Below, in pieces: positions 8,252 to 45,181 of a DNA stretch of 64,000 bases (within the stretch, counting starts at the first letter, position 1; every line of letters starts with the position of its first letter). Origin of the DNA: Escherichia coli. Lineage in GTDB: Bacteria > Pseudomonadota > Gammaproteobacteria > Enterobacterales > Enterobacteriaceae. The DNA lies in NCBI RefSeq assembly GCF_002854065.1, contig NZ_CP024147.1; one strand, 5' to 3'. The position numbers and the translations under genes are program-made. A model generated the notes under the pieces. It searched no databases. It was given only the letters and a program-made list of their open reading frames with translations, and was not told the origin of the DNA.

Positions 8252-9559
8252 GTGTTTATGTTCAATTTTGCAGTTAGCCGCGAAAGCCTGTTATCAGGAT
8301 TTCAGTGGTTTTTCTTTATTTTTTGCAACACGGTTGTGGTTCCTCCTACGCTACTTTCTGCTTTTCAGTTGCCGCAAAGTAGCCTGCTTACGCTCACGCA
8401 ATATGCTTTTCTTGCTACCGCACTGGCCTGCTTCGCTCAGGCGTTTTGCGGTCATCGTCGCGCTATTATGGAAGGGCCGGGGGGCCTGTGGTGGGGAACC
8501 ATCCTAACTATCACCCTTGGCGAAGCATCGCGCGGGACACCGATCAACGATATCGCCACCAGCCTGGCAGTGGGGATTGCGCTCTCCGGCGTGCTGACGA
8601 TGTTGATTGGTTTTAGCGGATTAGGCCATCGCCTGGCACGGTTATTTACGCCGTCGGTGATGGTCTTGTTTATGTTGATGCTGGGCGCGCAGCTGGCCAC
8701 TATCTTTTTCAAAGGTATGCTCGGGCTGCCGTTTGGCATAGCCGACCCAAATTTTAAAATTCAGTTACCACCGTTCGCGCTCTCGGTGGCGGTGATGTGC
8801 CTAGTACTGGCGATGATTATTTTCCTGCCGCAACGTTTTGCCCGTTATGGCCTGCTGGTCGGCACCATAACCGGCTGGTTGTTGTGGGACTTTTGCTTTC
8901 CTTCTTCGCATTCGCTCTCCGGTGAGTTGCACTGGCAGTGGTTCCCGCTCGGCAGTGGCGGTGCTTTGTCTCCGGGGATTATTCTGACGGCGGTGATTAC
9001 AGGTCTGGTGAATATCAGCAATACCTACGGTGCGATTCGGGGCACGGATGTTTTTTATCCGCAGCAGGGCGCGGGGAATACGCGTTATCGTCGTAGCTTT
9101 GTGGCGACCGGATTTATGACGCTGATAACCGTACCGCTGGCGGTAATTCCATTTTCACCGTTTGTTTCATCCATTGGTTTATTAACCCAGACTGGCGATT
9201 ACACGCGGCGTTCGTTTATTTATGGCAGCGTTATTTGCCTGCTGGTGGCGCTGGTTCCTGCACTCACGCGACTGTTTTGCAGTATCCCTTTACCCGTGAG
9301 TAGTGCGGTCATGCTGGTTTCTTATCTGCCTTTACTCTTTTCCGCGCTGGTGTTTAGCCAGCAAATAACGTTTACCGCTCGCAATATTTATCGACTCGCA
9401 TTGCCGTTATTTGTCGGCATATTTTTAATGGCATTACCGCCTGTGTATCTGCAAGACCTTCCATTAACGCTTCGTCCTCTGCTCAGTAACGGCTTATTGG
9501 TCGGGATTTTACTGGCTGTTCTTATGGATAACCTTATTCCGTGGGAACGCATCGAATAA
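8252..9559 (+). CDS. ybbY: putative purine/uracil permease family transporter
   Basis: 435-aa hydrophobic ORF recognised as YbbY; start may be 2 codons later. Confidence 0.8.
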   Translation: MFMFNFAVSRESLLSGFQWFFFIFCNTVVVPPTLLSAFQLPQSSLLTLTQYAFLATALACFAQAFCGHRRAIMEGPGGLWWGTILTITLGEASRGTPINDIATSLAVGIALSGVLTMLIGFSGLGHRLARLFTPSVMVLFMLMLGAQLATIFFKGMLGLPFGIADPNFKIQLPPFALSVAVMCLVLAMIIFLPQRFARYGLLVGTITGWLLWDFCFPSSHSLSGELHWQWFPLGSGGALSPGIILTAVITGLVNISNTYGAIRGTDVFYPQQGAGNTRYRRSFVATGFMTLITVPLAVIPFSPFVSSIGLLTQTGDYTRRSFIYGSVICLLVALVPALTRLFCSIPLPVSSAVMLVSYLPLLFSALVFSQQITFTARNIYRLALPLFVGIFLMALPPVYLQDLPLTLRPLLSNGLLVGILLAVLMDNLIPWERIE

Positions 9560-9580
9560 TTTGTTGAAAAAGGATTGATA

Positions 9581-10726
9581 ATGAAGATTGTCATTGCGCC
9601 AGACTCTTTTAAAGAGAGCTTAAGTGCAGAAAAATGTTGTCAGGCAATTAAAGCCGGGTTTTCGACCCTCTTTCCCGATGCGAACTATATCTGTTTGCCG
9701 ATAGCGGATGGCGGCGAAGGGACGGTGGATGCGATGGTCGCCGCGACGGGCGGCAACATCGTGACGCTTGAAGTCTGCGGGCCGATGGGCGAAAAAGTGA
9801 ATGCTTTTTATGGCATTACCGGCGACGGGAAAACGGCGGTGATTGAGATGGCGGCAGCAAGTGGCCTGATGCTGGTCGCGCCTGAAAAGCGTAATCCGTT
9901 GCTGGCCTCCAGTTTTGGTACGGGGGAGTTAATTCGTCATGCGCTGGATAACGGCATTCGCCATATTATTCTCGGCATTGGCGGCAGTGCGACGGTCGAC
10001 GGCGGTATGGGCATGGCGCAGGCGCTCGGTGTGCGTTTCCTTGATGCCGACGGTCAGGTGCTGGTGGCTAACGGCGGCAATTTAGCGCGCGTGGCAAGCA
10101 TTGAGATGGAGGAATGCGATCCGCGTCTGGCGAACTGCCATATTGAAGTAGCATGTGACGTTGATAACCCGCTGGTAGGGGCACGCGGCGCGGCGGCGGT
10201 GTTTGGCCCGCAAAAAGGGGCAACGCCGGAGATGGTCGAAGAACTTGAACAGGGGCTGCAAAATTACGCCCGTGTTTTACAACAGCAAACTGAAATTAAT
10301 GTCTGCCAGATGGCGGGCGGCGGCGCTGCGGGCGGTATGGGTATTGCGGCGGCGGTATTTCTCAATGCGGATATTAAACCGGGTATTGAGATTGTACTGC
10401 GTGCGGTCAACCTGGAGCAGGCGGTGCAGGGGGCAGCACTGGTGATCACCGGGGAAGGGCGCATTGACTCGCAAACGGCAGGCGGTAAAGCGCCGCTGGG
10501 CGTTGCGTCGGTGGCGAAGCAGTTTAATGTACCGGTGATTGGGATTGCTGGCGTATTGGGTGATGGCGTGGAAGTGGTGCACCAGTACGGCATTGACGCG
10601 GTATTCAGCATTTTGCCACGTCTGGCACCTTTAGCCGAAGTGCTCGCCAGCGGTGAAACCAATCTCTTCAACAGCGCGCGAAATATTGCCTGCGCCATTA
10701 AAATAGGTCAGGGAATTAAAAACTGA
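9581..10726 (+). CDS. glxK: glycerate kinase II
   Basis: 381 aa from [14 protein letters not shown]; recognised as GlxK. Confidence 0.88.
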
Positions 10727-21577: not shown

Positions 21578-22072
21578 TTACTCGCTAACGGTCACGCTTT
21601 CAATGATAACGTCTTCTTTTGGCACGTCCTGGTGCATACCGCTACGACCGGTTGCAACACCTTTGATTTTGTCTACCACGTCCATGCCTTCAACCACTTC
21701 AGCAAACACGCAATAGCCCCAACCTTGCAGGCTTTCGCCAGAGAAGTTCAGGAAGTCGTTATCAACCACGTTGATGAAGAACTGTGCAGTTGCAGAGTGC
21801 GGAGCCTGAGTACGGGCCATTGCCAGCGTACCACGGGTATTTTTCAGACCGTTGTTGGCTTCGTTTTTGATCGGTTCTTTGGTGGCTTTTTGTTTCATGC
21901 CCGGTTCAAAACCGCCGCCCTGAATCATAAAGCCGTTGATAACACGGTGGAAAATGGTGTTGTTGTAAAAACCTTCGCGGCAGTAGTCCAGGAAGTTTTT
22001 AACTGTTTCAGGTGCTTTATCGTCAAAAGTTTTGATGACAATATCGCCGTGATTGGTGTGGAAAGTAACCAT
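21578..22072 (-). CDS. ppiB: peptidyl-prolyl cis-trans isomerase B
   Basis: 164-aa cyclophilin ORF recognised as PpiB. Confidence 0.92.
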
Positions 22073-22245
22073 TTTTGCATCCTGTTCCGTTTGATTGGTG
22101 CTTCAACCCAGTTCGGGTCATATATAGGGTGGTGTTATAGCATAACCGCACGATCGGATCATCACGCAATGTATGCTGATTCGCGCGGGAAATATGGGTA
22201 TTATACGCAACTCAATTACCCACACATGTCTAAACGGAATCTTCG

Positions 22246-23631
22246 ATGCTAAAAATCTTCAATACTCTGACACGCCAAAAAGAGGAATTTAAGCCTATTC
22301 ACGCCGGGGAAGTCGGCATGTACGTGTGTGGAATCACCGTTTACGATCTCTGTCATATCGGTCACGGGCGTACCTTTGTTGCTTTTGACGTGGTTGCGCG
22401 TTATCTGCGTTTCCTCGGCTATAAGCTGAAGTATGTGCGCAACATTACCGATATCGACGACAAAATCATCAAACGCGCCAATGAAAATGGCGAAAGCTTT
22501 GTGGCGCTGGTGGATCGCATGATCGCCGAAATGCACAAAGATTTTGATGCGTTGAACATTCTGCGCCCGGATATGGAGCCGCGCGCGACGCACCATATCG
22601 CAGAAATTATTGAACTTACTGAACAACTGATCGCCAAAGGTCACGCTTATGTGGCGGACAACGGCGACGTGATGTTCGACGTCCCGACCGATCCGACTTA
22701 TGGCGTGCTGTCGCGTCAGGATCTCGACCAGCTGCAGGCAGGTGCGCGCGTTGACGTGGTCGACGACAAACGCAACCCGATGGACTTCGTTCTGTGGAAG
22801 ATGTCGAAAGAGGGCGAACCGAGCTGGCCGTCTCCGTGGGGCGCGGGCCGTCCTGGCTGGCACATTGAATGTTCGGCAATGAACTGCAAGCAGCTGGGTA
22901 ACCACTTTGATATCCACGGCGGCGGTTCAGACCTGATGTTCCCGCACCACGAGAACGAAATCGCGCAGTCCACCTGTGCCCATGATGGCCAGTATGTGAA
23001 CTACTGGATGCACTCGGGGATGGTGATGGTTGACCGCGAGAAGATGTCCAAATCGCTGGGTAACTTCTTTACCGTGCGCGATGTGCTGAAATACTACGAC
23101 GCGGAAACCGTGCGTTACTTCCTGATGTCGGGCCACTATCGCAGCCAGCTGAACTATAGCGAAGAGAACCTGAAGCAGGCGCGTGCGGCGCTGGAGCGTC
23201 TCTACACTGCGCTGCGCGGCACAGATAAAACCGTTGCGCCTGCCGGTGGCGAAGCGTTTGAAGCGCGCTTTATTGAAGCGATGGACGACGATTTCAACAC
23301 CCCGGAAGCCTATTCCGTGCTGTTTGATATGGCGCGTGAAGTGAACCGTCTGAAAGCAGAAGATATGGCAGCGGCGAATGCAATGGCATCTCACCTGCGT
23401 AAACTTTCCGCTGTATTGGGCCTGCTGGAGCAAGAACCGGAAGCGTTCCTGCAAAGCGGCGCGCAGGCAGATGACAGCGAAGTGGCTGAGATTGAAGCGT
23501 TAATTCAACAGCGTCTGGATGCCCGTAAAGCGAAAGACTGGGCGGCGGCAGATGCGGCGCGTGACCGTCTTAACGAGATGGGGATCGTGCTGGAAGATGG
23601 CCCGCAAGGGACCACCTGGCGTCGTAAGTAA
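22246..23631 (+). CDS. cysS: cysteinyl-tRNA synthetase
   Basis: 461-aa ORF with HIGH (CHIGHGR) and KMSKS motifs. Confidence 0.95.
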
Positions 23632-32364: not shown

Positions 32365-32441
32365 GCGCCCTTAGCTCAGTTGGATAGAGCAACGACCTTC
32401 TAAGTCGTGGGCCGCAGGTTCGAATCCTGCAGGGCGCGCCA
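32365..32441 (+). tRNA. argU: tRNA-Arg (anticodon UCU)
   Basis: 77-nt sequence GCGCCCTTAGCTCAGTTGGATAGAGCAACGACCTTCTAAGTCGTGGGCCGCAGGTTCGAATCCTGCAGGGCGCGCCA with cloverleaf and CCA end. Confidence 0.95.
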
Positions 32442-32443
32442 TT
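32397..32443. repeat. prophage attL core (47 bp, 3' half of argU)
   Basis: Identical 47-bp copy found at 48894-48940. Confidence 0.8.
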
Positions 32444-32456
32444 ACAATTCAATCAG

Positions 32457-33620
32457 TTACGCCTTCTTTATATCCTCCATAATTCCAGAGTGGGACATAT
32501 TTGGGACATTATCACCAAAAATGTCGTCTATTTTCCTCGCATGCTCTGTCAAATGATTAGGCGCAAGGTGAGCATACCTACGAACCATTTCTATGGACTC
32601 CCATCCGCCCATTTCCTGAAGCACTGATAATGGGACGCCTGACTGAATCAGCCAGCTTGCCCAGGTGTGTCTGAGGTCATGGAAACGGAAATCTTCAATT
32701 CCTGCACGACGACAAGCTGATAGCCATGATGTCTTGCTGTCGATGCGCATCTTCCTGACCGCAGGCGTTGATGTTCCATCTGCTCGCTTAGCCGCCTTGG
32801 TATGTACAAACACCCATTTGTGATGCTTGCCTATTTGATCACGCAACACTTTACAGGCGGTATCGTTCAGCGCCACACCAATGGCGCGGTTTGATTTGCT
32901 CTCTTCTGGATTCACCCAGGCAACTCGTCGCTGCATGTCGATTTGTTGCCATTCCAGATTTATGATGTTCGACTTTCTCAGACCAGTTGCCAGCGCAAAC
33001 TTGACGACAGATTTCAGTGGTTCGGGGCACTCATCAATAAGGCGTTTTGCTTCCTCCTTTTCCAGCCATCTGACTCGCTTGTTTCTGACCGCTGGTATCT
33101 TGATGACAGGCGCTTTTTCCAGCCACTTCCAGTCGCGTTCTGCAGCACGGAGAATGGCCTTTATCATGGCAAGATGCTTTGCCTTTGTCTGAGTTGATAC
33201 TGGCTTTGGTTCATAAACAGGCAGTTCTTTACCTTTCCTGATGGCGGCCTGAACTTTCTGTTTCCATATTTCTTTCGTCTTTCTGTTATGCATTCTGCTT
33301 ACAGCAGAGTAAATCTTTGCCTCCGAGATATCTTTAAGCCTTATACCCTCAAAATGTTCAAGCCAGAACTCAATCCGGCTTTTATCTGAATCGAGAGATT
33401 TTTTATCAGCTTTTTCCTCAAGCCATCTTAGGCAGGCCTCTTCAAAAGTGACATCAGGTAAATCCCCTAGCTTTTCTACTCGCCAGAGTTCTGCTTTTCG
33501 CTTGTCGTGCAACTCCTGAGCTTGCCGCTTGTCCTTTGTGCCAAGAGATTCCTTAATTCGTTTCCCGCCCGGGAGCGAATACGAGGCATACCATATTTCA
33601 TTTCTGCGGAAGAGTGACAT
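32457..33620 (-). CDS. intD: prophage tyrosine integrase
   Basis: 387-aa ORF with C-terminal R..H..R..Y catalytic region ([10 protein letters not shown]); adjacent to tRNA. Confidence 0.9.
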
Positions 33621-33847
33621 TTTCTTTCCTCTGTTATGCCATCACCCGCGCTCACCTGGACAGTATGCAGCGGAGACTGAAGCGCCGCAATGCAGGCTTG
33701 CCGTGTTGTGAGGTAAGGAGATTTTGGCTTGGTTGGATCTTTACGTGTTGCCTGTAGGCGGCCTGTTCGTATCCAGTTGGTGGCGGTTGGTCTGGATATC
33801 TTAAGAAACTGACAGGCCTCATCGAGTGTGAGGCTGTATGATTCCAT
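33476..33847 (-). CDS. excisionase/AlpA-like wHTH protein (possibly degenerate)
   Basis: [34 protein letters not shown] motif; reading frame runs 145 nt into int, suggesting altered 3' end. Confidence 0.5.
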
Positions 33848-34097
33848 GGTTACCTCTGCTTTTTGAACGCATGTCACGTAACTTCTTAATGTGTTCTGCC
33901 GTTTCGATCTCTTCTGCTATCCGATCTGCATCAGCTTTATTCACAGGTTCAAAGTCATGATTAAAGCGGAACATGCTGGCGATACATGTTCTGCCTTTTC
34001 GGATGTAGTGAACTTTGTTGTGGGTAGAACGCAGGATTTTGCAGGGAGTGCCGTGGTGGTCGACGTACCAGGTGTTAGGAAAAATGATTCTGAACAT
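33819..34097 (-). CDS. hypothetical prophage protein
   Basis: 92-aa ORF in early-left operon orientation; no recognisable motif. Confidence 0.35.
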   Translation of the reverse strand: MFRIIFPNTWYVDHHGTPCKILRSTHNKVHYIRKGRTCIASMFRFNHDFEPVNKADADRIAEEIETAEHIKKLRDMRSKSRGNHGIIQPHTR

Positions 34098-34144
34098 TTT
34101 TACACCTCAGTTGGACGATGTTGAAATTTGCTGCTTTGAGGCCA

Positions 34145-34363
34145 TCACAGTCCCCATTGTTTGTTCTTAAGTTCGATCTCCTCCTGGCAACTCGCACAAG
34201 TCCGACAACCCTGAACAGCCAGGCGTCTTCGCTCATCTATCGGATCGCCACACTCACAACAATGAGTTGCGGATACAGTCTGGTAGTTCAGACGACGCAT
34301 TTTTATTGCTGTATTGCGCTGTAATTCTTCGATTTCTGATGCTGAATCAATGATGTCTGCCAT
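34145..34363 (-). CDS. TraR/DksA-family C4 zinc-finger protein
   Basis: 72-aa ORF with CxxC...C..C motif (CCECGDPIDERRR...CRTCASC). Confidence 0.6.
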   Translation of the reverse strand: MADIIDSASEIEELQRNTAIKMRRLNYQTVSATHCCECGDPIDERRRLAVQGCRTCASCQEEIELKNKQWGL

Positions 34364-34590
34364 CTTTCATTAATCCCTGAATTGTTGGTTAATACGCTTG
34401 AGGGTAAATGCGAATAATAAAAAAGGAGCCTGTAGCTCCCTGATGATTTTGCTTTTCATGTTCACCGTTCCTTAAAGACGCCGTTCAACATGCCGATCGC
34501 CATGCTTAAATGAGTCGGTGTGAATCCCATCAGCGTTACCGTTTCGCGGTGCTTCTTTAGTATCTGGCTGAAAGAGGGGGTTATTAAGGC

Positions 34591-34953
34591 GTGAATACCT
34601 ACAGCATCACATTACCCTGGCCTCCGAGCAATAATCGCTATTACCGCCATAATCGCGGGCGCACGCACGTCAGCGCAGAGGGGCAGGCATACCGCGATAA
34701 CGTCGCCCGAATCATTAAAAACGCAATGCTGGATATCGGCCTGGCTATGCCTGTGAAAATCCGCATTGAGTGCCACATGCCGGATCGCCGTCGCCGTGAC
34801 CTGGATAATCTGCAAAAAGCCGCTTTTGACGCACTCACTAAAGCAGGTTTCTGGCTGGATGATGCTCAGGTCGTTGATTACCGCGTTGTGAAGATGCCTG
34901 TTACCAAAGGTGGGAGGCTGGAACTGACCATCACCGAAATGGGGAATGAATGA
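34591..34953 (+). CDS. rusA: Holliday junction resolvase RusA
   Basis: 120-aa ORF recognised as RusA; GTG start with AGAGGGGG SD. Confidence 0.9.
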
Positions 34954-35090
34954 TGTTTGAGTTTTATATGGCAGAACTTCTTCGCCACCGCTGGGGGCAT
35001 CTGCGCTTATATCGTTTCCCCGGTTCTGTTTTGACCGATTACCGAATACTGAAGAGTTACGCCAAAACCCTGACAGGAGCAGGAGTATGA
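34950..35090 (+). CDS. ylcG: small prophage protein
   Basis: 46-aa [19 protein letters not shown] overlapping rusA stop; recognised as YlcG. Confidence 0.5.
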
Positions 35091-35175
35091 AGTCAGAGAT
35101 AACAATCAACTAATACTGTTTTGTTGATTTTTGCTTGTAATTGGCGTTTTGGTCTGATTTTTGTGGAGTAAGTTG

Positions 35176-35559
35176 ATGCGTGATATTCAGATGGTTCTTG
35201 AGCGTTGGGGAGCGTGGGCGGCTAATAATCATGAAGATGTGACCTGGTCGTCCATTGCCGCCGGTTTTAAGGGATTAATTCCTTCAAAAGTAAAATCTCG
35301 CCCGCAATGTTGTGACGATGACGCGATGATCATTTGCGGGTGCATGGCCCGTCTGAAAAAGAACAACAGCGATTTGCACGATTTATTAGTAGATTATTAT
35401 ATAGTCGGTATGACATTCATGTCACTGGCAGGTAAGCATTGCTGCTCTGATGGTTATATCGGGAAAAGGTTACAAAAGGCTGAGGGCATAATTGAAGGGA
35501 TGTTAATGGCATTAGATATCCGGTTAGAGATGGATATCGTTGTTAATAACTCTAATTAA
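35176..35559 (+). CDS. quuD: late gene antiterminator Q
   Basis: 127 aa from [18 protein letters not shown] with zinc-binding cysteines; phage Q family. Confidence 0.85.
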
Positions 35560-35589
35560 TACGCCAATTATTTACTAAAAGTTATTAAA

Positions 35590-35740
35590 AATGGGGCGTT
35601 GAAGCGCCCCCAAAAATAAAGGGTAATATATAACAGAAGGTTTGTATAGTTAGAAGCAAGGTTGTGCTTCTAAAGGAAGTGGCTTGAGGGAGCCACTTAT
35701 ATGTTGGGGAGGCAAAGCCTCCCACAACATATCTTTTAGT
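35590..35740. terminator. cluster of four stem-loops between convergent quuD and nmpC
   Basis: GGGGCG-ttgaa-CGCCCC; GAAGCA-aggttg-TGCTTC; AAGTGGCT-tgaggg-AGCCACTT; GTTGGGGAGGC-aaa-GCCTCCCACAAC followed by T-run. Confidence 0.4.
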
Positions 35741-35747
35741 AATCAAA

Positions 35748-36830
35748 TTAGAACTGGTAAACCATACCTACAGCAACGATATCATCGGTAGCAACGCCAG
35801 ATGCTTTCGTGAAATCGCTCTTATCAATCAGGTTGATTTTGTAGTCAACAAAAGTGGACATATTTTTGTTGAAGTAATAGGTTGCACCTACATCAACATA
35901 TTCAACCAGGTCCTGATCACCCCAAACACCCAAGTCTTTTCCTTTAGAATGCAGGTAAGCAACGGATGGACGCAGGCCGAAGTCGAACTGATATTGTGCA
36001 ACAGCTTCGAAGTTTTGTGCTTTGTTGGCAATATGGTTATTACCAAAAACAGTCATGTTCTGGGTTTCAGAATAGGTGGTGGCCAGATAGATGTTGTTCG
36101 CATCATATTTCAGACCAGCTGCCCATACTTCAGCATTTTGACCAGAAGCATTCAGACCGTTGTTACCGTAGATAACCTGATTATTAGTGCGATCAGATTT
36201 AGCATAGGTTGCACCCACGCCGAATCCTTCATACTCATAAGTAGTTGAGAAACCGAAACCATCGCCATTAGCTTCAGTTACTTCATTTCGGTCATTTTTG
36301 CCCTGATACTGAGCTGCAAAGTTCAGGCCATCAACCAGACCAAAGAAGTCGTTGTTACGATAAGTTGCAACACCTGTGGTGCGACCAGTCATGAACACAT
36401 CTGTTTGGGTCCAGGTATCGCCACCGAATTCTGGCAGAACGTCAGTCCACGCACCGATGTCGTATGCTACACCGTAGTTACGGCCGTAATCGATTGAGCC
36501 GTAGTCACCGAATTTCAGGCCAGCGAAGGCAAGACGGGTTTTATCTTTGGAGGAACCTTGAGATTCAGCGCGGTTGCCTTTGAATTCATATTCCCACTGA
36601 CCGAAACCAGTCAGTTGATCGTTGATTTGGGTTTCACCTTTGAAGCCAAGACGGGCATAAGTAGTATCACCATCATCTGCATCATTAGAGGAGAAGTAGT
36701 GCTTAGCATTAACTTTCCCGTACAGATCCAGCTTGTTACTGTCTTTATTATAAATTTCAGCTGCCTGAGCAGACATCGCCATCAGTACTGATGCAGCTAC
36801 AGCAGAAATTGCCACTGTTAATTTTTTCAT
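35748..36830 (-). CDS. nmpC: OmpC/OmpF-family outer membrane porin, intact
   Basis: 360-aa ORF with signal peptide [23 protein letters not shown] and C-terminal ...VYQF; recognised as NmpC. Confidence 0.9.
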
Positions 36831-37258
36831 CGTGAGCCCTTTTTTTTGAACTATTATTAAAAAATGATGTCACTGCGCGATAAATATTCATCTAATCAAT
36901 GTGATTATTTCAAGATGTAAGTTTTGGTTTCTCGTTTAATTTGTGAAGTAGATCTCTATTTTTATCTGAACTTTTTTCTATCGAATCCTATTCATGGCTC
37001 TTGGCTGAATAAAAATAAATCTATTAGCCAATTTATATTAATGGCTGTTATTTATAAGTGCTCTATAATTTGAAGGTTCAATTTAAATTGGCTAAAAATA
37101 ACGCTGGAAATTATTTGTTGGTTATTTGTTGAGATTTTCTTATGTATTTGTAGTGGTGTTTTCAATACTCGGTAGCATTCTCGCAAATATCATTTAGTGG
37201 TTTACGTACGTAAAAAATTGGTTATGCTGTTAAGAGTGGTTACTTCGTTACACAGCTT

Positions 37259-37290
37259 AAACCCGCCGTCGAGCGGGTTTTTCCATTTTT
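37259..37290 (+). terminator. tR'-like rho-independent terminator upstream of lysis genes
   Basis: ACCCGC-cgtcga-GCGGGT followed by TTTTT; about 115 nt upstream of holin start. Confidence 0.55.
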
Positions 37291-37403
37291 TGAGTCTCGA
37301 TATTAGCTGATAACCCAATACCTGAGTTATTCACTGACTCCGAGTCTGTTACGTTTCGTAGTATTCCCTCAATTTACACCCGCTTTGTCTGCGAGGTGGG
37401 GTT

Positions 37404-37619
37404 ATGAAATCCATGGATAAGTTAACAACGGGTGTCGCCTATGGCACCTCAGCAGGTAGTGCCGGGTACTGGTTTTTACAGCTGCTCGATAAAGTCACGC
37501 CCTCACAGTGGGCAGCAATAGGTGTGCTGGGTAGCCTGGTATTTGGCCTGCTGACGTACCTGACAAACCTTTATTTCAAGATTAAAGAAGATAAGCGCAA
37601 GGCTGCGAGAGGTGAATAA
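37404..37619 (+). CDS. essD: class II holin (phage 21 S-like)
   Basis: 71-aa ORF with two TM segments and charged C-terminus. Confidence 0.85.
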
Positions 37620-38116
37620 TGCCTCCATCATTACGAAAAGCTGTTGCTGCTGCTATTGGTGGCGGGGCTATTGCTATAGCATCTGTGTTAATCACTGGCC
37701 CAAGTGGTAACGATGGTCTGGAAGGTGTGAGACATAATCCTTACAAAGACATAGTTGGTGTATGGACTGTATGTTACGGGCATACAGGAAAAGACATCAT
37801 TCCCGGTAAAACGTATACCGAAGCAGAGTGCAAAGCCCTCCTGAATAAAGACCTTGCCACTGTCGCCAGACAAATTAACCGGTACATCAAAGTCGATATA
37901 CCGGAAACAACGCGCGGCGCTCTTTACTCGTTCGTCTACAACGTGGGTGCTGGCAATTTCAGAACATCGACGCTTCTTCGCAAAATAAACCAGGGTGATA
38001 TTAAAGGCGCATGTGATCAGCTACGGCGCTGGACATACGCTGGCGGTAATCAATGGAAAGGACTGATGACTCGCCGTGAGATTGAGCGTGAAGTCTGTTT
38101 GTGGGGGAAACAATGA
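37619..38116 (+). CDS. rrrD: phage lysozyme (endolysin)
   Basis: 165-aa ORF with T4-lysozyme-like motifs; ATG overlaps holin stop. Confidence 0.9.
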
Positions 38117-38571
38117 GCAGAGTAACCGCGATTATCTCCGCTCTGGTTATCTGCATCATCGTCTGCCTGTCATTGGCTGTTAATCATTACCGTGATAACG
38201 CAATCGCCTACAAAGAGCAGCGCGATAACAAGGCCAGTGAACTGGAGAAGGCGAACGCCACCATCGCTGACATGCGGAAGCGTCAACGTGATGTAGCAGA
38301 ACTCGACGCAAGATACACAAAGGAGCTTGCTGATGCTAACGCGACTATCGAAAGTCTCCGTGCTGATGTTTCTGCTGGGCGTAAGCGCCTGCAAGTCGCC
38401 GCCACCTGTGCAAAGTCAACGACCGGAGCCAGCGGCATGGGCGATGGAGAAAGCCCAGGACTTACAGCAGATGCTGAACTCAATTATTACCGTCTCCGAA
38501 GTGGAATCGACAAGATAACCGCGCAGGTTAACTACCTGCAGGAATACATCAGGACGCAATGCCTGAAATAA
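38113..38571 (+). CDS. rzpD: i-spanin Rz
   Basis: 153 aa from [17 protein letters not shown]; N-terminal TM then coiled coil; lambda Rz-like. Confidence 0.85.
38327..38518 (+). CDS. rzoD: o-spanin Rz1 lipoprotein embedded in +1 frame of Rz
   Basis: 63-aa ORF with lipobox LLGVSAC and proline-rich region, nested in Rz. Confidence 0.6.
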
Positions 38572-38603
38572 TTTTTTTGCAAATCACAAAGTCCATTTAA
38601 TGA

Positions 38604-38627
38604 GCCTCGCGATGCGGGGCTTTTTTT
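38604..38627 (+). terminator. rho-independent terminator after lysis cassette
   Basis: GCCTCGC-gat-GCGGGGC hairpin followed by TTTTTTT. Confidence 0.55.
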
Positions 38628-38866
38628 ACATCTGAATTTCACAGCGCATCTCACGCGCATATTACATCACCCGAGCCTTTCAGAAAGTTGAGCCTGAGAA
38701 CTGCCGTATATGGTGGCGACCATCTCGGGGCGGCTTTTCTGTGAGACAGGCTCACTTTCTAAAAGGTAAAGACGCTATGAACCAATTAGAAGAAAAGCTT
38801 CAAAGAATGATTTCCTTATACAAGGAAGATAACTGCCAAAAAGTTCCTTAAAACATCGCAGAGTTA

Positions 38867-39265
38867 ATGGAATTGGCAAGTGAATTTTCTGGCATGCTTA
38901 AGTCGTCAGGTGTTCGGTCAGCGTTCTTTGTTGAAATGCTGATGCACGGCGGACTTATGGCAACAATGAGACGTGTAATGGAAGACCAGAGAAAAGAACC
39001 TCCTCAGGTATACGTTTTGTCATCGAAGAAAACTGGGCTAACCAAAATTGGGTATTCATCCAACATTCCACAACGCATCAAATCGCTTGGCAACTCTGGA
39101 CCAGACTGCTTGAAGCTTGAGTGCCTGATCCCTGGTGGAAGAGAAACTGAAAACATGCTTCATCGCAAATTTGCCGCAAAGAGAAAGCACGGTGAATGGT
39201 TCGCCCTGTCCAAGGATGACATTGAGGGATTGAAATCTGTAGCGATTACTTCTGATGGCTATTAA
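38867..39265 (+). CDS. T5orf172/GIY-YIG-like domain protein
   Basis: 132-aa ORF; motif VYVL..TGLTKIGYS..RIKSL...HRKF...HGEWFAL; in frame with a 24-codon upstream ORF separated by one TAA. Confidence 0.45.
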   Translation: MELASEFSGMLKSSGVRSAFFVEMLMHGGLMATMRRVMEDQRKEPPQVYVLSSKKTGLTKIGYSSNIPQRIKSLGNSGPDCLKLECLIPGGRETENMLHRKFAAKRKHGEWFALSKDDIEGLKSVAITSDGY

Positions 39266-39943
39266 TGCTTGTTTAGAGCAATTTTCATAACAACTCTTCA
39301 TTACAAAGCCCATCTACTGGTGGGCTTGATAATGAAACCGTGATTTACATCCCCACAATCCGGGTATGTAAAAGATAGTTCAGGCGAGAACGGATTTAAC
39401 TAAATCTGTGCGCCACCAGTTAACGGCAGTACCACGAAACAACCCAAGCCAGTAAGTGGGGAAATAACACCGGCAGCCACTGAAAGATGAACCTCCTGCC
39501 TTATGGCAAAAAAGATTCTTTGTGGTGGCGGACTGATGGAAAGACATCCTAATTTCAGCCAAACATTGAAGGAGTTGTTATGTCAGCAGAAGGTTTCAAT
39601 AACCCATCAAAATTCCGGGATGAGTGGGATAGCAGCGTAAAGAGTAAGTGATGCCATCACAAAAGCCATTCCCTACAGAGTGGCTTTGATAATGGCTTAT
39701 ACCCTACACGGGATAACTTAACTGATATCCTTTTTAAAGGATAAAGGTATTCAAGCCTGACACATCATGCGCTGTATCGTCGCCGTATTCCCGTATTAAC
39801 AGAGACCGTAGCCCGACGGGGAACTCCTTCTGCGCGAGTGTGCGGGAATAATCAAAAACGATGCACACCGGGGTTACCGGGTACACATATTTCATCATGC
39901 CAGCGAGTCCGGTTCTGGCACGGAAGAAACCGGACGTTATGAT

Positions 39944-40354
39944 TTAGTGCGGAAATATTTGTGTAGTGTTCTGAATGTTCTCAGTAAAGAGTAATGAATT
40001 ATCAAAGGTATAGTAATACCTTTTGTTTTCGTGGATATTTGTAATCCATCTGAAAACCCCTGCTGTAGCAAGATTTTTCCTGTATTCGTAAAATGATAAC
40101 TCTCCTGATTTGAATCCTTTTAATGTGGTTTCTATAAGGCATTTATTTTTTGAAAATCTTACATTTACAACCTTACCCTGTCCTTTTATTAAAACCGTAT
40201 TATCGTTTTCAAGAACAAGATGAATATTCTCTGTGGCTAAATAGTAAATGTAATGTGAGACATTGTGACGTTTTAGTTCAGAATAAAACCAGTGATAGTT
40301 TAAATTATTTCGCACTTTATCGAATATTTGTTTAAAAATGGCAACCTGAGCCAT
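39944..40354 (-). CDS. ybcV: prophage protein YbcV-like
   Basis: 136 aa from [14 protein letters not shown]; recognised tentatively. Confidence 0.55.
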
Positions 40355-40411
40355 TGTAGTACCTTCCATGTGATATGAAGGTACCTAGTCTGCACGATTA
40401 TCTAAATTGCT

Positions 40412-40645
40412 TCAATCTGGTCTGACCTGCTTTCTGAGCAATTCAGTAATGTCACTCTTTTCTTTGTTTGCTTCAGGCGAAACTCTTTTTTCTGAGCACA
40501 GTCTTCGGCGGCAGGCTTCAATGACCCAGGCTGAGAAATTCCCGGACCCTTTTTGATCAAGAGCGATGTTAATTTGTTCAATCATTTGGTTAGGAAAGCG
40601 GATGTTGCGGGTTGTTGTTCTGCGGGTTCTGTTCTTCGTTGACAT
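40412..40645 (-). CDS. ribbon-helix-helix-like small prophage protein
   Basis: 77-aa basic ORF; RNIRFPNQMIEQINIALDQKGSGNFSAWVIEACRRRL resembles RHH DNA-binding fold. Confidence 0.45.
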   Translation of the reverse strand: MSTKNRTRRTTTRNIRFPNQMIEQINIALDQKGSGNFSAWVIEACRRRLCSEKRVSPEANKEKSDITELLRKQVRPD

Positions 40646-40819
40646 GAGGTTGTCCCGTATTCAGTGTCGCTGATTTGTATTGTCTGAAGTTGTTTTTACG
40701 TTAAGTTGATGCAGATCAATTAATATGATACCTGCGTCATAATTGATTATTTGACGTGGTTTGATGGCGTAGATGCACGTTGTGACATGCAGATGATAAT
40801 TATTATCATTTTGCGGGTC

Positions 40820-41030
40820 CTTTCCGGCGATCCGACAGGTTACGGGGCGGCGACCTCGCGGGTTTTCGCTATTTATGAAAATTTTCCGGTTTAAGGCGTT
40901 TCCGTTCTTCTTCGTCGTAACTTAATGTTTTTATTTAAAATACCCCCTGAAAAGAAAGGAAACGACAGGTGCTGAAAACGAACTTTTGGGCCTTTGTCGT
41001 TTCCTTTCTCTGTTTTTGGCCGTGGAATGA
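40820..41030 (+). other. lambda-type cos site (cosQ/cosN/cosB)
   Basis: GGGCGGCGACCT cohesive-end sequence at 40845-40856 followed by Nu1-binding R-site repeats CGTTTCC and IHF-like AT tract; matches lambda left end. Confidence 0.75.
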
Positions 41031-41033
41031 ACA

Positions 41034-41858
41034 ATGGAAGTCAACAAAAAGCAGCTGGCTGACATTTTCGGTGCGAGTATCCGTACCATTCAGAACTGGC
41101 AGGAACAGGGAATGCCCGTTCTGCGAGGCGGTGGCAAGGGTAATGAGGTGCTTTATGACTCTGCCGCCGTTATAAGATGGTATGCCGAAAGGGATGCTGA
41201 AATTGAGAACGAAAAGCTGCGCCGGGAAGTTGAAGAACTGCGGCAGGCCAGCGAGACAGATCTCCAGCCAGGGACTATTGAGTACGAACGCCATCGACTT
41301 ACGCGTGCGCAGGCCGACGCACAGGAGCTGAAAAATGCCAGAGACTCCGCTGAAGTGGTGGAAACCGCATTCTGTACTTTCGTGCTGTCGCGGATCGCAG
41401 GTGAAATTGCCAGTATTCTCGACGGGATCCCCCTGTCGGTGCAGCGGCGTTTCCCGAACGGCACGGTCGATGTGTTCCGCGGCTGGGTCAGCAGTATCGG
41501 TAAGGCGGTGACGGCGAAGGAAGTGATTACCCGCACGGTGAAAGTCACCAACGTAGGACGTCCGTCGATGGCAGAAGATCGCAGCACGGTAACAGCGGCA
41601 ACCGGCATGACCGTGACGCCTGCCAGCACCTCGGTGGTGAAAGGGCAGAGCACGACGCTGACCGTGGCATTCCAGCCGGAAGGCGCAACCGACAAGAGCT
41701 TCCGTGCGGTGTCTGCGGATAAAACAAAAGCCACCGTGTCGGTCAGTGGTATGACCATCACCGTGAAAGGTGTTGCTGCAGGCAAGGTCAACATTCCGGT
41801 CGTATCCGGTAATGGTGAGTTTGCTGCGGTTGCAGAAATCAACGTCACCGCCAGTTAA
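41034..41858 (+). CDS. nohD: terminase small subunit Nu1 N-terminal 141 aa fused to tail tube V-like Ig (Big_2) C-terminal domain
   Basis: First 141 aa match lambda Nu1 ([30 protein letters not shown]...); remainder matches C-terminus of lambda gpV ending VTAS. Confidence 0.85.
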
Positions 41859-41873
41859 TCCGGAGAGTCAGCG

Positions 41874-42224
41874 ATGTTCCTGAAAACCGAATCATTTGAA
41901 CATAACGGTGTGACCGTCACGCTTTCTGAACTGTCAGCCCTGCAGCGTATTGAGCATCTCGCCCTGATGAAACGACAGGCAGAACAGGCGGAGTCAGACA
42001 GCAACCGGAAGTTTACTGTGGAAGACGCCATCAGAACCGGCGCTTTTGTGGTGGCGATGTCCCTGTGGCATAACCATCCGCAGAAGACAAAGCTGCCTTC
42101 TATGAATGAATTGGTGCTCATACGCACTCCGTTGCGATTGGTTCACATGGACACACCATCACCGTTAACGCTGCTGGTAACGCGGAAAACACCGTCAAAA
42201 ACATCGCATTTAACTATATTGTGA
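41874..42224 (+). pseudogene. tail assembly chaperone G-like fragment
   Basis: First ~80 aa match lambda gpG (MFLKTESFEHNGVTVTLSEL...), then diverge. Confidence 0.6.
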
Positions 42225-42234
42225 GGCTTGCATA

Positions 42235-42819
42235 ATGGCATTCAGAATGAGTGAACAACCACGGACCATAAAAATTTATAATCTGCTGGCCGGAACTAAT
42301 GAATTTATTGGTGAAGGTGATGCATATATTCCGCCTCATACAGGTCTGCCAGCAAACAGTACCGATATTGCACCGCCAGATATTCCTGCTGGCTTTGTGG
42401 CTGTTTTCAACAGTGATGAGGCATCGTGGCATCTCGTTGAAGACCATCGGGGTAAAACGGTTTATGACGTAGCGTCAGGGGACGCGTTATTTATTTCTGA
42501 ACTCGGTCCGTTACCGGAAAATGTTACCTGGTTATCGCCGGAAGGGGAGTTTCAGAAGTGGAACGGCACAGCCTGGGTGAAAGATGCAGAAGCAGAAAAA
42601 CTGTTCCGGATCCGGGAGGCGGAAGAAACAAAAAACAGCCTGATGCAGGTAGCCAGTGAGCATATTGCGCCACTTCAGGATGCTGTAGATCTGGAAATCG
42701 CAACGGAGGAAGAAACCTCATTGCTGGAAGCCTGGAAAAAGTATCGGGTGTTGCTGAACCGTGTTGATACATCAACTGCACCTGATATTGAGTGGCCTAC
42801 GAACCCTGTCAGGGAGTAA
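42235..42819 (+). CDS. tfaD: tail fiber assembly protein
   Basis: 194-aa Tfa-family ORF. Confidence 0.8.
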
Positions 42820-42873
42820 TCATTGGGATTATGCCGCAGCACGTCTTAAGCAAGAACGTGCTGCGGTTGGATG

Positions 42874-43542
42874 CTATTTTTTCCCTGAAGCGGAAAACAT
42901 TACTACAGTACCTTGAACCTTGGTTTTAACATTCTCGAAATGCTCTGAGAGTATATGTGTTAAGCCTTCTTCAGAATCTTTTGTGTTTGAAAAGATGCCT
43001 TTCTGATTGTAAATGCGCATCAGTTTTTGACCGAAGCTATTGTGCACAACTCCATCGCCAAGAATTGTGGCTCCGTATAGAGTTCCATCGTCAGTTAAGG
43101 CCTGCGCCGCATTGCGTATTACACAGCTTTTTGTAGATATATTTCCAGGCAGGCAGTGAAGAAGGTAAAACATGGAAATGGAATCAAATTGACCATGTAA
43201 CGCCGCGGGATAAGGTTCAAAAACATCATGGCTAATTTTATGTTTAATTTTTGATTCCCCAGCCCTTGTAGATGCCGCGTTCAGGCTAGCTTCGTTCAAA
43301 TCCATTAAAGATATCAGACTACTCTCAGGTACGTGAGTAAGGTAAAACCCAGTTCCAACACCAATATCCAGATGGTTGTTACCTAAATGTTCCAGAAAGT
43401 GTGGAAGAAGGTGTTCCTTTGTAGGACATCCCCATGCAAGCCGATTTGATACTCCCAAAACCCACCAGTCATAAAGCTTTAGGGTAAGTGGTGTGTAAAT
43501 TTTAGCCCCATCATCTGTGTTTTTTTTCATTAATTTCACCAT
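42874..43542 (-). CDS. ybcY: class I SAM-dependent methyltransferase
   Basis: 222-aa ORF with motif I DIGVGTGF. Confidence 0.7.
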   Translation of the reverse strand: MVKLMKKNTDDGAKIYTPLTLKLYDWWVLGVSNRLAWGCPTKEHLLPHFLEHLGNNHLDIGVGTGFYLTHVPESSLISLMDLNEASLNAASTRAGESKIKHKISHDVFEPYPAALHGQFDSISMFYLLHCLPGNISTKSCVIRNAAQALTDDGTLYGATILGDGVVHNSFGQKLMRIYNQKGIFSNTKDSEEGLTHILSEHFENVKTKVQGTVVMFSASGKK

Positions 43543-43598
43543 GTTATAGTTTTATTTGTGAGTTAAATCAATTATGGCAATGAATTACAAGGGGTTAA

Positions 43599-43852
43599 AT
43601 GCTGCCGCAGCATAGCGATATTGAAATAGCCTGGTATGCTTCAATACAGCAGGAGCCGAATGGCTGGAAGACCGTCACCACACAGTTCTACATCCAAGAA
43701 TTCAGTGAGTATATTGCGCCACTGCAGGATGCTGTAGATCTGGAAATCGCAACGGAGGAAGAAAGATCGTTGCTGGAAGCCTGAAAAAAGTATCGGGTGC
43801 TGCTAAACCGTGTGGACACTTCCGTAGCACCAGATATCGAGTGGCTTATTCA
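43599..43852 (+). pseudogene. tfaX: tail fiber assembly gene remnant truncated by IS1
   Basis: C-terminal Tfa-like segment with internal TGA, duplicate of tfaD 3' end, interrupted by IS1. Confidence 0.6.
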
Positions 43853-43907
43853 GGTGATGCTGCCAACTTACTGATTTAGTGTATGATGGTGTTTTTGAGG
43901 TGCTCCA

Positions 43908-44183
43908 GTGGCTTCTGTTTCTATCAGCTGTCCCTCCTGTTCAGCTACTGACGGGGTGGTGCGTAACGGCAAAAGCACTGCCGGACATCAGCGCTATCTC
44001 TGCTCTCACTGCCGTAAAACATGGCAACTGCAGTTCACTTACACCGCTTCTCAACCCGGTACGCACCAGAAAATCATTGATATGGCCATGAATGGCGTTG
44101 GATGCCGGGCAACCGCCCGCATTATGGGCGTTGGCCTCAACACGATTTTCCGCCATTTAAAAAACTCAGGCCGCAGTCGGTAA
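43908..44183 (+). CDS. insA: IS1 InsA
   Basis: 91-aa [33 protein letters not shown]. Confidence 0.9.
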
Positions 44184-44605
44184 CCTCGCGCATACAGCCG
44201 GGCAGTGACGTCATCGTCTGCGCGGAAATGGACGAACAGTGGGGATACGTCGGGGCTAAATCGCGCCAGCGCTGGCTGTTTTACGCGTATGACAGTCTCC
44301 GGAAGACGGTTGTTGCGCACGTATTCGGTGAACGCACTATGGCGACGCTGGGGCGTCTTATGAGCCTGCTGTCACCCTTTGACGTGGTGATATGGATGAC
44401 GGATGGCTGGCCGCTGTATGAATCCCGCCTGAAGGGAAAGCTGCACGTAATCAGCAAGCGATATACGCAGCGAATTGAGCGGCATAACCTGAATCTGAGG
44501 CAGCACCTGGCACGGCTGGGACGGAAGTCGCTGTCGTTCTCAAAATCGGTGGAGCTGCATGACAAAGTCATCGGGCATTATCTGAACATAAAACACTATC
44601 AATAA
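44102..44605 (+). CDS. insB: IS1 InsB (expressed as InsAB' by -1 frameshift)
   Basis: 167-aa ORF in -1 frame relative to insA; A6C slippery motif at 44159-44165. Confidence 0.85.
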
Positions 44606-45181
44606 GTTGGAGTCATTACCGCTTATTCAACCATAATAAACAGTATGTATATCATAGGTTATTAATTGTGAGTTTTTTCGGTGTGTTATTTGTTTGTTTG
44701 ATGTTATGCTTTTGCGCCCCAAAAGGTTGTTTAGATGTATTTTATCAATTGATTTTCAATATCGTTTAATAAAGAAAAATTAAGCAAGCTGGATGTTGGT
44801 TTTTTGTTAATTGAATGGTTCTAATAATGTTTTTTTACTGTTGTTGAATGTGACTTGATAAGAAATGCAAGTAAAAATGATACTCTTTTTATTTTAAATT
44901 CAAACGGTTGACATATATATAGCAAGAGGTTTCAGGTGCGTTGTAGTGAGTTTATGTTAATAAAAAGTATAGTAAGCGTTGAAAAATGTAACTTTGAAAT
45001 ACGTTAGAATAAAAAACAATATACATATAATAATTTAATCTTAAATGAAATTTATTAAAATTTGCAAACTATAATTTTGTGTATAAAAATATAAATGCAC
45101 ATCATCCTGATTATGATTGTGTATTTAATTGGTTGTTATTTGACTGCTATCAACTTGTTTTAATTTTATGATAGGTGCAAG

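Follow-up and report, generated by a model that had tools for sequence, protein, structure and literature searches.

Deletion scars in a DLP12-type prophage remnant of Escherichia coli, with a chimeric Nu1-V reading frame and a recurrent breakpoint in stf

Introduction

Two adjoining open reading frames (ORFs) in the Escherichia coli contig NZ_CP024147.1 (RefSeq assembly GCF_002854065.1) raise the question of whether a chimeric phage gene has been retained by its host or is simply what deletions left behind. We analysed a stretch of 64,000 nucleotides (nt) of this contig, here called the window, in which all positions are counted from the first letter. An earlier reading of the letters alone, made without database searches (the sequence-only reading), had described a frame that begins as the lambda terminase gene Nu1 and ends as the major tail protein gene V, followed by a truncated G gene. 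Comparison with phage and bacterial genomes shows that the two frames lie at deletion junctions within a defective, DLP12-type cryptic lambdoid prophage inserted at argU. We put the probability that the region consists of neutral deletion scars produced by ordinary prophage decay at about 0.9.

Three deletion junctions

The window was aligned with lambda (NC_001416) by BLAST and with the viable 48.2-kb phage PhiR26_1 (PV340555.1), which served as the undeleted model. The features on which the argument turns are as follows (a slash marks a join here and below; aa, amino acids).

41034..41858, plus strand: chimeric ORF of 274 aa, Nu1 aa 1–141 followed by V aa 114–246, Arg-Phe-Pro being common to both parents
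41874..42224, plus strand: G', ORF of 116 aa, gpG aa 1–79 followed by 37 aa of out-of-frame stf
42110..42234, plus strand: orphan 3' fragment of stf, its last 41 codons (IGAHTHSV...NYIVRLA) and stop, with no in-frame start
34561..34562, no strand: early-region scar J0, PhiR26_1 2123 joined to 14428, about 12.3 kb gone, microhomology of 2 nt (TA)
41448..41456, plus strand: junction J1, PhiR26_1 21137 joined to 29817, 8,680 bp deleted, 9-nt imperfect homology
42110..42111, no strand: junction J2 (...ATGAATGAA/TTGGTGCTCAT...), PhiR26_1 30479 joined to 43132, 12,653 bp deleted, microhomology of 1 nt

Against lambda, window 40845–42868 resolves into three colinear blocks. The first, 40845–41456, corresponds to lambda 1–613 (cos and Nu1 codons 1–141; 97.2% identity), the second, 41448–42110, to lambda 9285–9947 (V codons 111–246, the V-G spacer and G codons 1–79; 96.4%), and the third, 42110–42868, to lambda 21848–22608 (the last 41 codons of stf/orf-314, and tfa; 92.7%). 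PhiR26_1 is closer, the Nu1, V-G and stf'-tfa-ybcY-tfaX segments being 97.8%, 98.2% and 98.4% identical, respectively. This phage carries the same int/att end and all three blocks of the window in the ordinary lambda order; its 48.2-kb genome is complete, however, and Nu1, V, G and stf each stand in it as a full-length gene of their own.

The two ORFs exist in the ORF list as had been described, and the lambda alignment bears out an in-frame switch after 141 residues of Nu1, which had been placed near 41457. At J1 the parents agree at seven of the nine positions of CG(T/C)TT(T/C)CCG, with 2 nt of exact homology, and the crossover falls in the central TT. In both parents this stretch encodes Arg-Phe-Pro (Nu1 aa 139–141, V aa 111–113). 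The fusion is in frame because V lies in frame +1 relative to Nu1 and 8,680 equals 1 modulo 3. J1 took out the end of Nu1, the genes A, W, B, C/Nu3, D, E, FI, FII, Z and U, and the start of V.

Lost with J2 were the end of G, the genes T, H, M, L, K, I, J and lom, and almost the whole of the side tail fibre gene stf. The join is out of frame, and G aa 1–79 therefore continue through 37 wrong-frame stf codons. The sequence-only reading had G matching for about 80 aa and diverging near 42115; the match stands, as G aa 1–79, but the break lies at 42110/42111 and the divergent end is stf read out of frame. Five mismatches grouped just before J2 were considered as repair damage, but PhiR47_2 has them too, and they belong to a natural allele of G.

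Comparison with both phages thus upholds the proposal that two separate deletions took the terminase large subunit, portal, capsid and most tail genes. To these we add a third scar, J0 at 34561, which connects the TraR-like/int end straight to the end of ybcO and rusA; exo, bet, gam, kil, cI, cro, cII, O, P, ren and the nin genes are gone.

E. coli genomes carry several copies of Nu1, V, G, stf and tfa, with a median of five matching places per genome, so that an assembler might in principle have created such joins by collapsing repeated lambdoid sequence. We regard this as extremely improbable. The same junctions occur in an assembly of 'complete genome' level, in another sequence that is a single contig of 4.7 Mb, in several drafts made independently and in contigs from metagenomes, and the joined partners share no homology of k-mer length that could mislead an assembler.

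Products of the two frames

The chimera retains the winged-helix DNA-binding domain of Nu1. Pfam assigns Phage_Nu1 to aa 1–145, Phage_TTP_12 to aa 135–180 (model positions 90–135 of 135) and a complete Big_2 Ig-like domain to aa 189–267 (E = 4.7e-20). Protein Data Bank matches agree: the Nu1 DNA-binding domain 1j9i covers aa 1–68, 6hn7_B aa 1–98, and the gpV Ig-like domain 2l04 aa 186–274. The last 136 aa agree with PhiR26_1 V residues 111–246 at every position, which confirms that this part is V-like. It had been described as the Ig-like domain of V; that domain is indeed there, and with it the final ~47 residues of the tube domain. The gpV N-domain, 2k4q, has 156 residues, and the chimera (V residues 111–246) holds only its end and not the complete tube-forming domain (about residues 1–156). 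AlphaFold2, run without an alignment, gave the chimera a mean predicted local distance difference test score (pLDDT) of 44.5, too low to be informative.

On the Nu1 side, residues 142–181 have been replaced by V sequence and the adjacent large-subunit gene (terL, gene A) is deleted. Catalano's truncation gpNu1-deltaP141 reportedly ends at the same residue as the Nu1 part of the chimera and is said to be without the gpA-binding domain. A functional gpNu1 (Pfam PF07471) has a C-terminus that binds the large subunit and a neighbouring terL, and the chimera offers neither. Nu1 residues 100–181 have been assigned to binding of the large subunit, TerL (PMC6739421).

G' matches NCBIfam TIGR01674 over aa 1–79 only (model positions 1–80 of 138), and 79 of 140 aa are G. 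It is no full-length G/GT chaperone, as the G/GT slippery site is absent and T is deleted. Its stop lies 10 nt before the tfa ATG. In the sister genome of strain 100416, the NCBI Prokaryotic Genome Annotation Pipeline (PGAP) labels the stf fragment 'phage tail protein, missing N-terminus'. PADLOC, which searches for defence genes, gave a weak generic JAB match for G' and, for the chimera, a sole weak match to a generic helix-turn-helix protein (mad1, aa 1–55); neither was taken as meaningful. Neither the chimera nor G' can do the phage job of its parent genes.

A promoter scan gave fewer promoter-like sites than shuffled sequence and none that was convincing before the chimeric ORF, and there is therefore no evidence that the chimera has a promoter of its own. 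The reading frames of the Q homologue, holin, lysozyme and Rz upstream of cos are open, which makes Q-dependent read-through into the chimera conceivable, and any transcription of it would presumably arise in this way from the late operon. Two findings count against such read-through: J0 deleted the early region that drives Q, and a strong terminator-like hairpin follows Rz (38602–38622).

Distribution and age

The 2.2-kb architecture and each junction were searched as separate queries in 5,426 complete E. coli genomes. The architecture, J1 and J2 each occur in just one, that of strain 100416 (human stool, the Gambia), which is 99.96% identical to the window over 9.1 kb. At least 69 contigs under the name E. 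coli encode the exact 274-aa protein, and a T144K variant bears the name Shigella dysenteriae; all of them share one gene context. No phage record reached 80% coverage of the fusion, by DNA or by tblastn, so that it was not found as a normal phage gene. PGAP marks the pieces in strain 100416 as partial pseudogenes, the V part as 'Ig-like domain-containing protein'.

There is not one single-nucleotide polymorphism (SNP) across the 1.2-kb scar region (41034–42234) among seven assemblies. At the protein level, the retained segments match viable phages with 100% identity (Nu1 1–141 in PhiR42_1, V 111–246 in PhiR26_1, G 1–79 in PhiR47_2), and thus no change has accrued since the deletions. Together these identities establish that the scars are recent and clonal. 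Their distribution confines them to one narrow E. coli/Shigella lineage, for which the three junctions are good markers. J0 is contiguous in only two complete genomes, those of strains 100416 and CUWW06 (NZ_CP182139.1). CUWW06 belongs to the same lineage and carries J0, together with a later deletion from quuD to cusC, bounded by the insertion sequence IS1, that took the rest of the prophage and appY, ompT, envY, nfrAB and cusRS.

J1 and J2 have not been seen apart: no genome or contig with just one of them was found, both queries led to the same complete genome, and all draft contigs have both. A single complex rearrangement in place of two sequential deletions would account for this, and we consider it unlikely. 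The junctions differ in type, J1 having 9 nt of imperfect homology and J2 a single nucleotide at a site used recurrently (S4, below), and in a clonal lineage the want of intermediates is weak evidence.

Decay or decoy

In the history that we favour, an ancestor organised like the viable PhiR26_1 lost three blocks by illegitimate recombination with little or no homology. J0 took away the early region. J1 took the stretch that runs from the end of Nu1 into the start of V; it fell by chance in the Arg-Phe-Pro triplet and so kept the frame, a one-in-three outcome. J2, which is out of frame, took everything between G codon 79 and the last 41 codons of stf. The chimera is most likely a by-product of deletion, and the scars in general appear to be by-products not retained by selection.

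Three observations weigh against so plain an account. The right endpoint of J2 is clearly non-random, so that illegitimate recombination explains J2 incompletely. All assemblies of the lineage, those of IS-rich strains among them, have the chimeric frame open, and the zero polymorphism leaves room for selection. Finally, what the chimera keeps of Nu1 is exactly the portion for cosB binding and dimerisation, and it loses at least part of the reported large-subunit-binding region, which is in principle a dominant-negative architecture.

The last point suggests that the chimera might be a domesticated decoy of the terminase small subunit (TerS), which would bind cosB or pair with the Nu1 of an incoming lambda-like phage, fail to recruit the large subunit and so disturb packaging. 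The retained winged-helix DNA-binding and dimerisation domain (1j9i, 6hn7_B and Phage_Nu1 matches above), the absence of residues 142–181 and of a neighbouring terL gene, and the frame that is open in all members of the lineage would suit such a role. Interference directed at TerS also has a precedent in the Rpp proteins of phage-inducible chromosomal islands (PICIs), which bind the N-terminal domain of lambda TerS and block phage packaging (PMC6739421). The likeness to Rpp is functional only, in that the DNA-binding domain of TerS, or cos, is engaged without a productive phage terminase; Rpp comes from a conserved PICI gene of its own and its activity has been demonstrated, whereas the chimera is a truncated Nu1 likened to a decoy by analogy alone. 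We consider a decoy very unlikely. Retention of the frame has a one-in-three chance, the fusion is found in a single narrow clade, and its sequence equals that of phage proteins and shows no polymorphism, hence no signal of selection; the rare variants in the 90% cluster of the protein are all single amino-acid changes. Furthermore, the V stump amounts to half a domain and probably does not fold, the promoter scan gave fewer hits than shuffled sequence did, and PADLOC found only the generic helix-turn-helix match.

Neutral decay thus remains our reading of the scars. They are a clean, well-resolved example of prophage dismantling, by three short-homology deletions in one E. coli/Shigella lineage, and in themselves of little importance. 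They also show how chimeric 'genes', such as a 'terminase small subunit' or an 'Ig-like domain protein', get into databases, and the 274-aa protein deserves a flag as a pseudogene fusion.

Comparison with other prophages

The remnant occupies the position of DLP12 in E. coli K-12, at argU. Both share the argU site, the int end, the backbone of Q, porin, lysis genes and cos, and the right-hand neighbours ybcY, tfaX, appY, ompT, envY and nfrA, and both are defective through deletion of morphogenesis genes. In K-12, however, the order is nohD - aaaD' - tfaD - ybcY - tfaX - appY - ompT, with a single morphogenesis scar (PhiR26_1 21550 joined to 43403) where the window has two, J1 and J2. K-12 DLP12 keeps a full-length nohD (181 aa, with Nu1 residues 142–181) and about 100 codons of A, all missing from the window; the window keeps the V'-G' island and the stf 3' end, both missing from K-12. 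The early-region scars differ as well, and in place of the K-12 bor the window has a GIY-YIG gene. As each keeps DNA that the other lacks, the deletions are independent and neither remnant could have arisen from the other. In strain KFu019 the flanks are those of the window remnant but the scars are again others, and further remnants carry further scars. This is independent, ongoing decay of one prophage family. It fits the view of defective prophages as reservoirs for recombination with incoming phages (PMC3945230).

A deletion-made ORF joining two unrelated phage genes in a decaying prophage has a counterpart in YmfN of the K-12 prophage e14, annotated as a 'chimeric replication protein/phage terminase'. 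The likeness is drawn from that annotation; the partners of YmfN are a replication protein and a large terminase, and the prophage is another.

A recurrent breakpoint in stf

The one unexpected feature of this region is the right end of J2, all else being ordinary prophage decay. This site, which we call S4, is A/TTGGTGCTCAT, 41 codons before the stf stop (window 42110/42111, PhiR26_1 43132/43133, lambda 21848/21849); a 41-mer in the S4 region, AACGCTGCTGGTAACGCGGAAAACACCGTCAAAAACATCGC, is invariant. At least nine different left partners are joined to S4 with nucleotide precision, several of them at different chromosomal loci as judged from the flanking genes.

Left partners of S4: G aa 79; Nu1 aa 169; A at two positions; P aa 33; Z aa 27; an internal stf site; two without an assigned gene
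Remnants with the S4 breakpoint (our numbering): L019, L119–L123, L129, L147, L161, L229–L233, and that of the window

In E. coli GDSC2227PM, Nu1 aa 169 is joined to stf at the very nucleotide of J2 (...CTGATA/TTGGTGCTCAT). A search of 5.8 billion proteins with the 37-aa wrong-frame tail found small ORFs with other N-termini fused exactly at /LVLIRT, namely lambda P aa 33, a Z-like aa 27 and an 18-aa N-terminus, and two further fusions off the site, 13 codons upstream or 8 codons downstream of it. An unbiased DNA scan, anchored 57 nt downstream of S4 and covering 140 loci, added A at PhiR26_1 22800 and a sequence after an L-like C-terminus as partners, besides two junctions 9 and 44 nt to the right of S4. 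Enriched scans added A at PhiR26_1 22726 and an internal stf site at 42704. By the unbiased searches alone, 15 junction types terminate within the final ~840 nt of stf plus the start of tfa, and seven of these fall on S4; the chance of this is ~2e-14 under a uniform model and ~3e-7 if only positions preceded by TA are eligible.

The left partners end in GATA, GGTA, GTTA, TTTA, TCTA or TGAA, nearly always in TA, and native stf has GGTA. Certain left breakpoints recur with another right partner, Nu1-169 being shared by GDSC2227PM and TUM9812 and A-22800 by L161 and KFu019. The stf site 42704 stands to the right of the join in one remnant and to the left of it in another. Junctions linked to S4 thus look re-used. 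Among ~139 native stf loci, no insertion at S4 and no rightward deletion from it was found.

A fixed DNA end or strand-transfer point at A/TTGG, joined to its partners through 1–4 nt of homology, describes these data. S4 may accordingly be a reusable, nucleotide-precise breakpoint, which would imply a site-directed break or strand-transfer activity (a candidate nuclease or recombinase) that repeatedly truncates lambdoid prophages leftwards and spares tfa and the downstream cargo. We advance this tentatively, our confidence falling a little short of even. A specific activity at one stf nucleotide would amount to a directed route of prophage inactivation, and would explain why so many remnants retain tfa and cargo.

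Several known sites were compared with S4 and rejected. The Pin-type pix/gix core (...AAACC NN GGTTT...) has only TTGGT in common with it (e14 pix arms AAACCTTGGTTTGGGAGAAGG and CCTTCTCCCAAACCAACGTTT; S4, CTGTCGGTA/TTGGTGCTCAT). Set against the Rci shufflon sfx site (spacer GTGCCAA and 12-bp arm TCCGGTNNNTGG; seven R64 sfx sites), S4 matches 5 of 7 spacer and 4 of 12 arm positions, the Rci cleavage position being one that we assumed. What we take to be the XerC arm of dif (GGTGCTCATAC) matches at 9 of 11 positions, but the join lies 2 nt outside the arm. Chi, the gyrase consensus and the F-plasmid nic site, in the forms we presume for them, do not put a cut at the observed nucleotide. A DNA hairpin is not indicated (z-score -0.3), nor are there notable local repeats at S4, and a mosaic boundary with P2-like phages lies off the site, 12 nt upstream. 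A literature search on tail-fibre-assembly genes and illegitimate recombination in defective prophages returned no relevant paper.

Two observations were made beside this search. In GDSC2227PM, a database 'terminase small subunit' (L019, 2505–3125) is itself a scar product, made of Nu1 aa 1–169 and the same 37 wrong-frame stf codons. At the 3' end of tfa, near PhiR26_1 43820 (about window 42798–42800), homology among remnants with differing downstream cargo stops at one point, just past the codons for ...DIEWP and ~20 nt before the tfa stop; this is a sharp mosaic boundary for cargo exchange.

The remnant and its neighbourhood

The remaining landmarks of the prophage are the following.

32365..32441, plus strand: argU, tRNA-Arg (UCU), found by ARAGORN; the attachment site
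32440..48945 (about), no strand: the DLP12-type lambdoid prophage remnant, delimited by the BLAST map against PhiR26_1, sister-genome annotation and called genes
32457–33620: intD-type integrase ORF, 387 aa, at the left end of the prophage
40845..40856, plus strand: cosN cohesive end, GGGCGGCGACCT, read from the sequence; lambda base 1 is window 40845
42235..42819, plus strand: tfa, tail fibre assembly, 194 aa, apparently intact (ORF list, sister annotation, called genes)

The left prophage end, window 32440, aligns with base 1 of PhiR26_1, and the left 2.1 kb are 99% identical to that phage (99.0% at the int/att end); the left end of K-12 DLP12 is near-identical to PhiR26_1 over 1.28 kb. From left to right the remnant reads int, TraR-like, J0, rusA, ylcG, Q, porin, S, R, Rz, GIY-YIG, ybcV, ylcI, cos, and then Nu1'-V', G', stf', tfa, ybcY, tfaX, IS1, appY and ompT::IS2. 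Sister-genome and K-12 annotation place tfa, ybcY, tfaX, appY, ompT and envY, and also nfrA, on the right. Both cosN and cosB, which runs to the Nu1 start, are intact. The particle-making genes (A through U and T through J) are gone, as is the whole immunity and replication region. With the argU site, the right-hand neighbours and this defectiveness, the element is a defective DLP12-type cryptic lambdoid prophage.

The GIY-YIG/T5orf172-type gene (132 aa, window 38867–39265) follows Rz, where K-12 DLP12 and PhiR26_1 have bor, and gives a weak PADLOC match to PDC-S57 (E = 4e-6). A different GIY-YIG gene stands directly after tfa in some other remnants of the S4 type (L120–L122).

Two insertion sequences lie farther right. 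An IS1 of 768 bp (43853–44620), with a 9-bp flanking duplication, separates tfaX from appY; it is missing from the sister strains 100416 and GCA_900449015.1, the latter having its own IS1 between Rz and the GIY-YIG gene. An IS2 of ~1.33 kb (47112–48440), whose 301-aa TnpB matches NF006918, interrupts the outer-membrane protease gene ompT (~46181–48900, minus strand). The leftover ompT ORF (46181–46897) holds omptin residues 80–317 only, and ompT is intact in the sister strains. Loss of OmpT is typical of Shigella and enteroinvasive E. coli. Beyond the prophage, nfrB (54175–56016, minus strand) is apparently split into ORFs of 390 and 210 aa, the former matching positions 1–385 of 723 of the NfrB profile, below the curated cut-off, and it is probably a pseudogene in the window.

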